The notes below the pieces were generated by a model. That model worked only from the letters and a program-made list of their open reading frames with translations. It had not been told where the DNA came from and searched no databases. This document shows positions 21,201 through 42,200 of a DNA stretch of 64,000 nt, piece by piece; position 1 is the stretch's first letter, and every line of letters begins with the position of its first letter. The position numbers were made by a program, and so were the translations under genes. Origin of the DNA: Eledone cirrhosa (Eukaryota). The stretch spans positions 9,052,001-9,116,000 of the forward strand of contig OZ024766.1 of assembly GCA_964016885.1 (NCBI GenBank), read 5' to 3'.

Positions 21201-24200
21201 TAGTAGTAGTGGTAGTAGTACCAGCAACAGTAGCAGCAGTAGTAGTAGTGGTAGTAGTACCAGCAACAGTAGTAGTAGCAGTAGTAGTAGTGGTACCAGC
21301 AACAGTAGCAGTAGTAGTAGCAGTAGTAGTAGTGGTAGTAGTACCAGAAACAGTAGCAGCAGTAGTAGTAGTGGTAGTAGTACCAGCAACAGTAGTAGTA
21401 GCAGTAGTGGTAGTGGTACCAGCAACAGTAGCAGTAGTAGTAGCAGTAGTAGTAGTGGTAGTAGTACCAGAAACAGTAGTAGTAGCAGTAGTAGTAGTGG
21501 TACCAGCAACAGTAGCAGTAGTAGTAGCAGTAGTAGTAGTGGTAGTAGTACCAGAAACAGTAGCAGCAGTAGTAGTAGTGGTAGTAGTACCAGCAACAGT
21601 AGTAGTAGCAGTAGTGGTAGTGGTACCAGCAACAGTAGCAGTAGTAGTAGCAGTAGTAGTAGTGGTAGTAGTACCAGCAACAGTAGCAGTAGTAGTAGCA
21701 GTAGTAGTAGTGGTAGTAGTACCAGCAACAGTAGTAGTAGCAGTAGTAGTAGTGGTACCAGCAACAGTAGCAGTAGTAGTAGTGGTAGTAGTACCAGAAA
21801 CAGTAGCAGCAGTAGTAGTAGTGGTAGTAGTACCAGCAACAGTAGTAGTAGCAGTAGTGGTAGTGGTAGTAGTACCAGCAACAGTAGTAGTAGTAGCAGT
21901 AGTAGTAGTGGTAGTGGTAGTAGTACCAGCAACAGTAGCAGTAGTAGCAGTAGTAGTAGTGGTAGTAGTACCAGCAACAGTAGTAGCAGTAGTAGCAGTA
22001 GTGGTAGTGGTACCAGCAACAGTAGCAGTAGTAGTAGCAGTAGTAGTAGTGGTAGTAGTACCAGCAGTAGTAGCAGTAGTAGCAGTAGTAGTAGTGGTAG
22101 TAGTACCAGCAACAGTAGCAGTAGTAGTAGCAGTAGTGGTAGTAGTACCAGCAACAGTAGCAGTAGTAGTAGCAGTAGTAGTAGTGGTAGTAGTACCAGC
22201 AACAGTAGCAGTAGCAGCAGTAGTAGTAGTAGTAGTACCAGTAGTAGTAGCAGTAGCAGTAGTACCAGCAGTAGTAGCAACAGCAACAGTAGCAGTAGTA
22301 GCAGTAGTAGTAGTAGTAGCAACAGCAACAGTAGCAACAGTAGTAGCAGCAGCAGCAATAGTAGCAGTAGCAGTAGTAGTAGTAGTAGCAACAGCAACAG
22401 TAGCAACAGTAGTAGCAGCAGCAGCAATAGTAGCAGTAGTAGTAGCAGTAGTAGCAGTAGTAGCAGTAGCAACAGTAGCAACAGTAGTAGCAGTAGCAGT
22501 AGTAGTAGTAGTAGTAGCAATAGTAGCAGTAGCAGTAGTAGTAGTAGTAATAGCAGCAGCATTAGTAGTAGTAGTAGTAGCAGTAGTAGCAACAGTAGCA
22601 ACAGTAGCAGTAGTAGTAGCAACAGTAGTAGTAGTAGTAGTAGTAGTAGCAGTAGTAGCAACAGTAGCAACAGTAGTATTAAAGGTAACACTCACCTGTA
22701 CGTGAGGAAGGGTAGTAGTAAATTCTGGCCTCTTTCTGTACCTGGGCTGTGTAACATACCTTGTTGGCTTTCACTATCATGTAGTAGCCACAGTTGCCCT
22801 TCTCTGTCAGGTGCCCCAGGAGGGGGAAAGAATCTGAAGTGAACAGAGCATATTTGATTAAAAACTGATTTGAGGTTTGTGTGTGTGTGTAGGTACATGT
22901 GTGTGTGTGTATGTTTGTGTGTGTGTATGTGTGTGTGTGAGTGTGAGTGTGAGTGTGAGTGTGAGTGTGTGTCAGGTCGCTCTCGAGTGCTACTGATATA
23001 TATATATATATACATATATATATATATATATATATATATATATATATATATATATATATATATGTATACATAAATACATACATATGTATATATATATATG
23101 TATATGTATGTATGTATGTATGTATATATATATATATATATATATATATATATATATGTATATATATACATACACATATATATACATATATATATATACA
23201 TACATATATATATATATACATACATATATATATATATATACATATATACATACATATATATATACATATATACATACATATATATATACGTATATACATA
23301 CATATATATATATACGTATATACATACATATATATATATATATACATATATATACATACATATATATACATACATATATATATATACATACATATATATA
23401 TATATATACATATATACATACATATATATATATACATATATATACATAATCGAACTCACAACCTCTCAAATGCGAACACAACACTCTAACCACTGATCCA
23501 TGCTAAAATGAAAAGAGTATACATACCTTCATAGAAGCCATTGTCAAACTGGGGTGGTGGTGGTAGTCATGGTGATATAGAAGAAAGAAATTTGTAATGG
23601 TTGATATGAATTCTATGGTACATAAACACATACTTGCACATGTATATATATATAACAAAGGAAATGTGGTAAGGAACCAGATGGACCATAACGCACCAAA
23701 GTACTCAATACTTAGGGTAGTAGAGTGGGTAATAGGAACAAGTAGGACCCCGACGGCTGAGCTCAAGCCGTTTCGACGGCTAATTCTGGATAAAAATTCT
23801 CATTTAGTCCAGAATTAGCCGTCGAAACGGCTTGAGCTCAGCCGTCGGGGTCTTACTCGTTCCTATATATATATATATATAATATAAGATCAAAAGATGG
23901 TTAAAGGAGTTCCATGTATTTTATTATGCGCATTTCAAAAACAAACATCATCATGCAATAATATTTGTGTTTTCATCAGATAAAACAGGAGAACATGATA
24001 TGAAGGCTAAAAAACACTTGTGGATAGTGCAGTTTTACTGTTGATTTAAAACTGCACTATCCACAAGTGTTTTTTAGCCTTCATATCATGTTCTCCTGTT
24101 TTATCTGATGAAAACACAAATATTATTGCATGATGATGTTTGTTTTTGAAATGCGCATAATAAAATACATGGAACTCCTTTAACCATCTTTTGATCTTAT

Positions 24201-39200: not shown

Positions 39201-42200
39201 ATTTTATCTGATGAAAGCGTACCAAAGTTTTGGTACCCTTGAAATATATATAATAGAATAAATACGGTTTTATAAATATATAATATTAATTCAAAATATT
39301 AATAAATATAGACATTCACGTAATCAAAATATATTTTATTATATATATTTCGGAGGTACTGTGTTGTTTTCTCAGTACGTCCTCATCAGATAAAATATAT
39401 AAATTGATGTATGACATACCTCAACTGCCAAGACTGGAATTGAACCATCAACACAGTTGAGGTATGTCGTACATCAATTTATATATTTTATCTGATGAGG
39501 ACGTACTGAGAAAAACAACACAGTACCTCCGAAATATATATAATAAAATATATTTTGATTACGTGAATGTCTATATTTATTAATATTTTGAATTAATATT
39601 AATAACTCCAGAAAACTTTTCCTGTTGAGTGCTTCTAATCTATTGTAAAGCTATATTCATTGATTAATCAATGAACCATGATTAACTTTTGGTCATATAT
39701 ATATATATAAAGTTACAGTATCGTGAGAGAGGATAGAAAGATGAGGTATAAAGAGAAACGATACAGAGGATTATTTGCCAAAAGTGAGGGCATATGTGCT
39801 CAATGCTTATGTAAACAGGGTTAAATATTAGAGGCGTTAATTATTTAGTGTACAAAGTTAAGCAGAGCAATTATAATCGAAAGAATTGATGAAAGAGAAG
39901 CAAGCCGTTAAAACACATTTATAAAAAGCTCTTACACATGTTTCACCCAAACCGCCTCAGAAGAGCCCCTTTGGGTGAAACATATGTAAGATTTTTTTTA
40001 TAAATGTGTTTTAACGTCTTGCTTCTCTGAAAGAGAACCAAGCCGTTAAAACACATTTATAAAAAGCTCTTACACATGTTTCACCCAAACCGCCTCAGAA
40101 GAGCCCCTTTGGGTGAAACATATGTAAGATTTTTTTTATAAATGTGTTTTAACGTCTTGCTTCTCTGAAAGAGAACCAAGCCGTTAAAACACATTTATAA
40201 AAAGCTCTTACATATGTTTCACCCAAACCGCCTCAGAAGAGCCCCTTTGGGTGAAACATATGTAAGATTTTTTTTATAAATATGTTTTAACGGCGTGCTT
40301 CTCTTTCATCAATTCTTTCGATTATATATACATACATATATATATATATATATATATATATATATATATATATATATATATATATATATATACAGTTGTC
40401 CCCTCGGTATTTGCCAGGTTATGTTCCTAGAGGACCCACAAAGAGTGAAAAACTGCGAATATTGGACGTGGTCCATAAAAATGCCTATAAGCGTCAAAAT
40501 ATAACGTAAAATATAATAAAAAGAGGGAGAGTCTTATGCGAGGGGGCGTCCAATAGGCCTGCTAATATGGTATACCATAATAATTGTTTCTAATTTTGGC
40601 ACAAGGCCAGCAATTACCCCCAGTGTATTACTGGTACTTTATTTTATCGACCCCGTAAGGATGAAAGGCAAAGTTAACCTTGGCGGGATTTGAATTCAGA
40701 CCGTAAAGAGACGTAACTATGCTGAAAAGCATGGCGTCTGACCCTCTACCGATACTGCCAATTCACCGCCATAATAAGAATAAAGGGAGCAATGCGGAAC
40801 TGTATCCTGAATATATCTTTTTATCCTGTTAGTAAAATAAGTTGGATTCCTTTCAATAAATAATGAATGAATCTATAATAAGAATAAAGGGAGAAGTGTG
40901 GGACTGTGTCCATTTTATATTATTTTATCCTGTTAGTAAAATAAGTTGGATTACTTTGAATAAATAATAAATGAATCTATAATATAATATAGGGAGAAGT
41001 GTGGGACTGTGTCCATTTTATATTATTTTATCCTGTCAGTAAAACAAGTTGGATTACTTGGAATAAATAATAAATGAATCTATAATATAATAAAGGGAGA
41101 AGTGTGTGACTGTGTCCGTTTTATATTATTTTATCCTGTTAGTAAAATAAGTTGGATTACTTGGAATAAATAATGAATGAATCTATAATATAATATAGGG
41201 AGAAGTGTGGCACTGTGTCTGTTTTATATTATTTTATCCTGTTAGTAAAATAAGTTGGATTACTTGGAATAAATAATGATTGCTTATTTTAAAATTTACT
41301 TTCTTTTTAATTTTCAAATGTCAATACTTCCAGTTATGATATAACGTACGCTATATCATATTGCTTATATAGACATTCATATATTTACATCGTTATATAA
41401 GGTTTATATTTCTGTCGCTAATTTTCTCCTTTTTCGTTTTCATTATATTTCGCTGTAATACAATTTATATATAATATCGTCTTTCTTTAAATGTATCATG
41501 GATTACTTTACTGATTACATAAGACAGTGTAACACAGTCTCTCTTCAATTTCTGTGTATATTGTCAATTACGATTTTACTTGATGTACCATATCATCATT
41601 TCATTTTACGCCCACTTTTTCCCTGCTTGCAAGGGTGGGACAGGAACTGATTCTGGCTTGATTTCTACAGCTGGATGCCCTTCCTAACACCAACCTCATT
41701 TACAGTGAGTGCTGGGTGCTTTTTTGCCGTGGCACCTCCACGACCACTTTGCAGTGGAATGATAGGGACCCCAGTCCCTATCATCTCATTTCTACAGCTG
41801 AGTAAACTGGAGCAATGTGAAATAAAGTGTCTTGCTCAAGGAAACAACACATCACCCGGTCTGAGAATTGAACTCACAACCTTTCGATTGCAACGCCAAT
41901 GCTCTAACCACTAAGCCATGTGATTACATTCATATTAAAAGATACAATCAAAAATACAGGTTAAAATAACCGCTTAATTTCATGTTGTATTTTAACCTGT
42001 ATTTTTTATTGTATCTTTTAATATGAATATAATCTCTAAATGTGTACTGCCACACTAAATGCTGTAATGAATGTTGACCCACAATATTTGCATATGTATC
42101 TGTATGTCTCTTGGGTGAAAAGGAGGTCATATAAGTGTTCATTCAATAATAAATTGCTCCGAAGAATCCAAACCTCGGTTTGGAGGAAACAGTTGTAAGC

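Follow-up and report, generated by a model that had tools for sequence, protein, structure and literature searches.

Penelope-like elements that carry an endonuclease are known to leave inverted copies of themselves, and several of the features discussed here have precedents. Inverted pseudo-long terminal repeats (pLTRs), pairs of hammerhead ribozymes on opposite strands and small interfering RNA (siRNA) from inverted copies have all been published already. In Schistosoma, dual hammerhead motifs lie 100-700 bp apart on opposite strands (PMC4209133). The way in which inverted copies are made has been called undefined (PMC8557442), and a self-priming model has been offered (PMC3846280); in vitro, the anole element PAc cuts and extends both strands, with two start sites that define its tail (PMC11167929). 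No paper on a strong-stop or twin-priming mechanism for Penelope-like elements was found in a search that left subscription literature mostly uncovered. Here we consider a window of 64,000 nucleotides from Eledone cirrhosa (assembly GCA_964016885.1, contig OZ024766.1, positions 9,052,001 to 9,116,000 of the forward strand; "the window" is this whole stretch), in which an initial annotation had noted seven palindromic elements, each with a minus-strand hammerhead on the left and a plus-strand one on the right, in the pre-mRNA of CC2D2A. The palindromes are an instance of the described insertion pattern in new octopod-type Penelope families. We put at roughly 78% the probability that they are short pLTR insertions of endonuclease-bearing Penelope-like elements, in which both target ends were primed on the same RNA and the copies joined head to head.

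Palindromes and their parent elements

The search for inverted repeats that the annotation had suggested was run as a self-BLAST after masking, and it confirmed all seven places: 23882-24202 (97% arm identity), 33755-33949/34346-34540 (99.5%), 35783-36327, 36463-36588/36836-36961 (96%), 37137-37473, 37592-37902 (95%) and 38847-39411 (92%). Tracts of (TA)n border each of the seven or lie within a few bases of it; the annotation had described most of them as so bounded. The left-minus, right-plus arrangement of hammerheads holds at six places; the element at 38850-39410 is a composite with four cores, the outer ones (38869, plus strand; 39389, minus strand) facing inward, and its simple units lie at 38977-39280 and 39281-39601. 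Two structures were corrected: at 33760-34540, arms of 195 bp flank a 10-mer satellite of 400 bp, and 36462-36980 has arms of about 126 bp around a 250-bp unpaired spacer, with 57-67% of bases paired. The palindrome at 39281-39601 and a decayed one at 38060-38345 had been missed. Each of the seven is asymmetric, with an extra tail of about 50-105 nt on a single arm, outside the coordinates first given. One-sided tails, arm mismatches of 1-11% and dozens of loci of the same architecture count against an assembly artefact.

The palindrome arms come from at least three autonomous Penelope-like families, of which they form the 3' ends (pLTRs); these families have an open reading frame (ORF) for a reverse transcriptase (RT) and a GIY-YIG-like part. 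The Penelope origin that had been proposed is shown, in that long copies continue from the arms into this ORF. One locus (L063) runs from an inverted bare tail through an ORF with RT (YRDD), a CxC...CPL linker and the GIY-YIG-like part, and then through a 2-kb 3' untranslated region (UTR) into a family A arm. A natural 750-amino-acid ORF of this family (L103) gave a model with a predicted local distance difference test score (pLDDT) of 84, and telomerase RTs made up six of its nine top Foldseek matches in the PDB, with other RTs scoring close. The YIG-type and Cys/His motifs of the putative endonuclease (EN) domain were read by eye, with no profile or fold match for the domain. The CxC...CPL...C linker between RT and EN was also seen by eye, and it presumably resembles the Neptune linker. 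ORF homologues with 36-58% identity occur in 10 of 14 extended family D loci and 11 of 16 extended family C loci. Direct pLTRs surround the ORF at L104, L107, L239 and L251 and inverted pLTRs at L104, L108 and L231, the layout of L104 being an inverted truncated copy, upstream pLTR, ORF and pLTR. In sequence, the tail equals the opening 105 nt of the leader that precedes the ORF; a tail of the kind found in EN-bearing (EN+) Penelope-like elements was present in 27 of 28 family A loci, and the element loci lie in AT-rich or microsatellite targets. Short tandem monomers, as in non-LTR retrozymes, were absent from the window elements, whose arms run into ORF-bearing elements. Exact tail words matched 134 times for family A, 6332 times for family C and 8674 times for family D in the genome (3.0 Gb). 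Family C tails also recur at a spacing of 3.7-3.9 kb (C1 43.108-43.116 Mb and others), as tandem full-length units, one of which is confirmed by L251.

Paired arms and a recurrent stop base

To avoid the bias of picking whole palindromes, loci were drawn by exact tail word, and 69 family A, 30 family C and 30 family D loci were fetched, those of C and D being the first in listing order. Some fetched flanks were just 1.5 kb, so counts of inverted partners are lower bounds. By script, the loci with an inverted tail-less arm on their upstream side numbered 42 of 69 for A, 22 of 30 for D and 25 of 30 for C. A manual check that dropped weak, duplicate or distant matches (L032, L164, L112, L125, L138) and added L057 gave about 42/69, 21/29 and 22/30, or about 60-75% of tail-selected loci. 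By manual reading, short double-hammerhead palindromes accounted for about 15 of 69 A, 9 of 29 D and 6 of 30 C loci; solo arms made up about a fifth of those sampled. Among the first 100 listed D arms without a stop (see below), neighbours within 10 kb formed 27 outward pairs, no inward pair and one tandem pair. Arm lengths within a locus are independent and range from 0 to 3.5 kb, the tail-less arm being the longer in about 22 A loci and the tail arm in about 9 (manual reading). A bare tail or short tail arm may border a tail-less arm as long as 3.5 kb (for example L036, L051, L054, L055, L057, L064, L074, L084 and L088), and it is because tail-only arms adjoin long tail-less arms that two-ended priming is preferred to a fold-back. 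Palindrome centres differ among loci, and both mirror forms are present.

The two arms of a locus nevertheless share a source. A search with the whole family A palindrome returned at least 40 near-identical 330-bp copies, and in the 28 that were aligned the arms shared 39 two-sided variants, against 6.4 ± 2.6 when shuffled, and differed by 2.5% inside loci and 4.1-4.3% between loci; no alignment column separated tail arms from tail-less arms. Since one-sided changes accumulate (94 in these loci), the symmetry dates mainly from insertion. Mean arm differences from the own partner and from other loci were 1.0 and 5.4 in family D and 0.4 and 4.9 in family C, and the closest arm was the own partner in 13 of 16 loci of D and in 18 of 20 of C.

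On the mechanism proposed here, a cut in (TA)n would allow both DNA ends to prime reverse transcription on one source RNA, with synthesis presumably starting from the tail site at one end and from the arm-end site at the other. By analogy, these two sites may be those found in vitro for the anole element. The two cDNAs would then meet through microhomology or small templated insertions, and many would stop at an Inr-like (initiator-like) base, giving palindromes of 300-400 bp. Outward-facing ribozymes would follow from priming at both target ends, so that a hairpin in the host pre-mRNA would be a by-product.

Internal arm 5' ends fall within a 15-nt interval in 32 of 68 A, 14 of 23 D and 9 of 27 C cases. 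The stop base (+1) is the A of TC|A, 60-70 nt upstream of the hammerhead, at a similar distance in three diverged families; its distance from the arm end is 163 nt in A, 168 nt in D and 192 nt in C. Across the genome, the base that precedes +1 is non-template in 2502 D arms, while 2991 read through, perfect palindromic joins being counted in neither group. The letter before +1, tallied by hand from listings, was G in 49 of the 100 first-listed D matches and in 51 of the 100 first-listed of 115 A matches, compared with 7 of 52 in a mutation control that used the 52 substitutions of an internal C in family D genome-wide. Published work describes an Inr-like TCACT in a rotifer pLTR (PMC3846280), a start site within the pLTR (PMC2377424, PMC8557442) and an extra G that marks the cap at L1 junctions (PMC11702581). 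The stop base is thus probably, though by no means surely, the capped 5' end of RNA from the pLTR promoter. A broader proposal is more tentative, and the odds are somewhat against it: RT starting 160-290 nt from the capped RNA 5' end, at both ends of a double-strand break, would yield strong-stop-like run-off cDNAs, thousands of joined run-offs would record the start site, and the central promoter of each short palindrome, or stub, could fire outward, seeding thousands of intronic hairpins and antisense starts.

Several observations weigh against these readings. In this genome, two-ended priming and the start site are both read from sequence; Pfam returned no match for the element ORF, and no search names it as Penelope. 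The 28 aligned A loci had been chosen by whole-palindrome match, which biases them toward fixed centres, and some arm ends of family C reflect subfamily divergence from the reference rather than real ends. The own partner was nearest in just 8 of 20 loci of the older family A, and 4 were clearly worse; some of these loci carry rearrangements, and two source RNAs may have been used. For many G junctions the partner arm, or slippage on a short repeat within the arm, could have supplied the template, and the 11 G cases among 30 A loci include one read-through variant, one that continues the partner and just 3 directly on the (TA)n flank. The prediction that upstream pLTRs of long copies start at +1 was mostly unmet: in a hand count of 30 copies with an ORF start, just 2 of the 13 upstream pLTRs reaching +1 stop there (p ~0.02 against 48%), which implies that the templates of long copies must be longer or multimeric, or that a jump is involved. 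The templatable G junctions and the read-through of +1 by most long copies, together with short self-complementary words at +1 in all three families, would suit a structural RT pause or palindromic microhomology in place of an RNA 5' end. We regard this explanation as doubtful, if a serious competitor, since arms also stop at +1 when joined to (TA)n or a bare tail (L065, L079, L054, L055, L207, L212, L218), where there is no partner for annealing, and since TC|A keeps a similar distance from the hammerhead across three diverged families.

The pairing itself could be explained by self-priming, with one cDNA or antisense template folding on a short palindrome and copying itself (the model of PMC3846280). 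The private variants shared by arms of one locus, the many junctions on 2-6 nt self-complementary words and the likeness of 38847-39411 to a fold-back duplication are what such a process would leave, yet its copy could neither gain a tail nor differ freely in length, and with tail-only plus long tail-less loci so common we consider it very unlikely. A self-propagating non-autonomous family copied from stub masters, akin to short interspersed elements (SINEs) or miniature transposable elements with inverted repeats (MITEs), is also unlikely. The abundance of near-identical 330-bp copies of family A would fit such masters; a tail-bearing stub contains +1, the presumed internal promoter and both start sites, and one variant occurs in 18 of 89 stub arms and in none of the 32 compared with them (p 0.003, uncorrected for 20 tests). 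This variant is also present in ORF-bearing copies, however, no fixed stub-specific variant was seen in A or D, and centres vary among loci in both mirror forms, without arm-specific columns. A search for a stub-specific lineage found none, and because stub arms form no separate lineage, the stubs are probably dead-end products. A mobile palindrome with a fixed centre was another candidate; it was an ascertainment effect, gone once loci were taken by tail alone. The pairs could, finally, be kept by selection, the duplex blocking ribozyme cutting of host pre-mRNA or feeding editing or siRNA. The geometry that the annotation had described, in which either direction of transcription gives a ribozyme plus its antisense copy, stands, a read-through transcript of either strand meeting the antisense arm first. 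At -170 to -460 kcal/mol, the predicted duplexes greatly exceed an isolated hammerhead (-7 to -14) in stability; all eight minus-strand hammerheads in this CC2D2A pre-mRNA region have an antisense partner, and the one solo copy that the window contains runs antisense to CC2D2A (n=1, not counting a duplicate of it that lies left of the window). In Xenopus, introns are depleted of tandem retrozymes (bioRxiv 10.64898/2026.07.22.740005), and siRNA arises from Penelope copies in inverted orientation (PMC3681739). That the arms are paired in order to protect the pre-mRNA is nonetheless unsupported, an inverted partner being the default product at tail-selected loci, which were chosen without regard to genes. 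Minimal hammerheads of metazoan Penelope-like elements showed no monomer cleavage in vitro (PMC4209133), and the anole one needs protein (PMC11167929). None of 118 sampled arm ends (families A, D and C) lies at the ribozyme cut site, and rare substitutions are not significantly fewer in the core (10/1491) than elsewhere (168/14735; p 0.25-0.51 per family, at low power and with a trend toward fewer). Selection on the pairs is therefore highly improbable. Given the siRNA already mentioned and the heavy editing of Penelope in a lizard (PMC5625713), it is plausible by analogy that palindrome double-stranded RNA (dsRNA) serves as a substrate for siRNA production or for adenosine deaminases acting on RNA (ADARs).

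Ribozymes, insertions and host gene in the window

The hammerheads are of type I, with invariant CUGAUGA and GAAA boxes and a covarying stem II in nine aligned window copies. In these copies 95.7% of stem cells are paired, with 17 two-sided changes; none of 500 shuffles scored as high, and slid controls gave 36-55%. Stem III has 2 bp with a self-complementary loop, matching the dimer-dependent type (PMC4209133). Rfam reported no hammerhead family in the window at gathering score, nor over 35700-39700 at E up to 10, and over the palindromes it matched generic microRNA hairpin models alone, below their thresholds; the hammerhead call rests on the core boxes and stem II covariation. In the copy with the 750-amino-acid ORF (L103), the upstream pLTR starts within 3 nt of the hammerhead cut, a position made ambiguous by microhomology. 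The insertions and the two flanking exons are listed in Table 1, in which families B and E were assigned by 75-87% identity to C and A.

Table 1. Insertions and flanking CC2D2A exons in the window (+ and - after an arm or core give its strand)
Feature	Coordinates	Strand	Parts and remarks
Solo A/E-type arm with hammerhead	4564..4840	+	core 4678; antisense to CC2D2A
Family D insertion	23882..24289		tail-less arm 23882-24037 (-, core 23979); arm 24039-24203 (+, core 24105); tail 24204-24289; junction within about 10 nt of the family D +1 stop site
CC2D2A coding exon	33402..33637	-	homologue residues 220-247 at 33400-33474; just downstream of the cluster in transcript direction
Family C insertion	33755..34627		tail-less arm 33755-33951 (-, core 33855); 10-mer satellite 33949-34345; arm 34345-34540 (+, core 34440); tail to ~34627
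Family E (A-related) insertion	35783..36426		tail-less arm 35783-35989 (-, core 35873); spacer; arm 36121-36327 (+, core 36237); tail to 36426
Family B (C-related) insertion	36463..37023		short tail-less arm 36463-36588 (-, core 36540); 250-bp unpaired spacer; arm 36836-36975 (+, core 36884); tail to ~37023
Family B insertion, left tail	37050..37473		tail ~37050-37136 (-); arm 37137-37299 (-, core 37236); tail-less arm 37311-37473 (+, core 37374)
Family A insertion, left tail	37497..37902		tail 37497-37590 (-); arm 37591-37751 (-, core 37689); tail-less arm 37752-37902 (+, core 37805); junction at the family A +1 stop site
Decayed palindrome (86%)	38060..38345		one + core at 38226
Composite	38700..39695		family B tail and arm end (-, ~38720-38857); inverted A-type arm copy 38861-38977 (core 38869 +); B palindrome 38977-39280 (cores 39050 -, 39208 +); A-type palindrome 39281-39601 (cores 39389 -, 39492 +); tail to ~39695
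CC2D2A coding exon	56863..56937	-	homologue residues 43-67; upstream of the cluster

The composite is likely a later fold-back duplication over its B palindrome, and the unpaired spacer of the first family B insertion is likely further 3' UTR of the longer arm. In the family C insertion, the centre of the palindrome has grown into the 400-bp satellite, whose 10-mer derives from the junction sequence. About eight insertions, with 25 of the window's 125 long (TA)n tracts, lie within the 6 kb of 33700-39750, and two or three in the rest of the window; this clustering suggests that existing insertions attract further ones. A palindrome at 39876-40322 has a triplicated 138-bp central unit and a hammerhead-like stem with an altered core, and perhaps belongs to another Penelope family. 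Further palindromes lie at 64-313 (hammerhead core at 187, minus strand), 23735-23863 (no readable hammerhead core; recurring beside L024), 28681-28733, 29668-29872, 38579-38685 and 41922-42034.

The placement of the palindromes in the CC2D2A pre-mRNA had been proposed by the initial annotation and was borne out by mapping of homologues, which puts them in introns of this minus-strand gene. With two full-length homologues obtained by HMMER search, at least 16 exons were mapped on the minus strand from 56937 to 3120; matches to the CC2D2A C2 family place minus-strand exons at and left of the window start, and a Pfam scan of single exons gave no match. With one exon at 56.9 kb upstream and another at 33.4-33.6 kb downstream, the cluster at 33755-39695 lies inside the gene, where additional, weakly conserved exons may occur between 33.6 and 56.9 kb. 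The left end of the family C insertion is about 120 nt from the putative splice acceptor of the 33.4-33.6 kb exon, a position predicted from the DNA, and the family D element lies between exons at 27.2 and 22.8 kb. Nothing special about CC2D2A itself emerged from this analysis.

Positions 1-7000 of the window, together with L270, form a tandem duplication of about 7.8 kb, its copies 96.6% identical at a period of about 8.2 kb. It takes in three CC2D2A exons, one of which ends early in the left copy, and may be a real duplication or an uncollapsed haplotype. Fragments of long interspersed elements (LINEs; RVT_1 and AP endonuclease matches), unrelated to the palindromes, lie at 24481-25617 and 63642-63998. 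Copies of a tRNA-derived SINE, inverted and in tandem, occupy 58020-58836 and 58979-59756, with a hammerhead fragment at 58467, and Rfam tRNA matches fall at 1402, 4447 and 58028.

Comparison with known systems

The junction statistics favour two-ended priming for a class of insertions whose origin had been called undefined, and they name an exact base for the question of the start site. An excess of genomic dsRNA potential has been reported for octopus (PMC5625713). With 6332 and 8674 tail matches for families C and D, and with short palindromes making up a fifth to a third of the insertions sampled, these families are a candidate source of that excess.

Among described systems, the inverted insertions of EN+ Penelope-like elements (Penelope/Poseidon, Neptune, Nematis, Naiad; PMC8557442, PMC3846280) share the head-to-head 5'-truncated inverted copy, the tail at one end, partial tandems, microsatellite targets, the pLTR hammerhead and the Inr-like TCACT. 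They differ, in the parts of these papers drawn on, in a tail of 30-40 nt, against about 85-105 nt here, and in a hammerhead and tail that lie over the ORF start, whereas here both belong to a leader that is non-coding; the present families also differ in having, at the Inr-like base, a stop site that is sharp and backed by counts. The minimal hammerheads of metazoan Penelope-like elements (PMC4209133) have the same type I fold, 2-bp stem III with self-complementary loop and long stem II; those described here are known from sequence alone, but are tied to their parent elements and have had their junctions analysed. Animal non-LTR retrozymes (bioRxiv 10.64898/2026.07.22.740005) likewise have type I hammerheads of Penelope-like origin; the arms studied here form no tandem monomers and continue into coding elements. 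Full-length L1 junctions (PMC11702581) show the same extra G at the 5' junction, whereas here 160-190 nt separate the stop from the arm end, and templating may account for part of the G excess. The elements of this genome, with a linker that is presumably Neptune-like, are distinct from the anole Poseidon element PAc. The behaviour of PAc in vitro (PMC11167929) resembles what is proposed here, with AT-rich target DNA, both strands cut and extended, two start sites that give tail and tail-less ends, and a dispensable hammerhead cut; the part of that paper drawn on describes neither a head-to-head join nor a run-off site.

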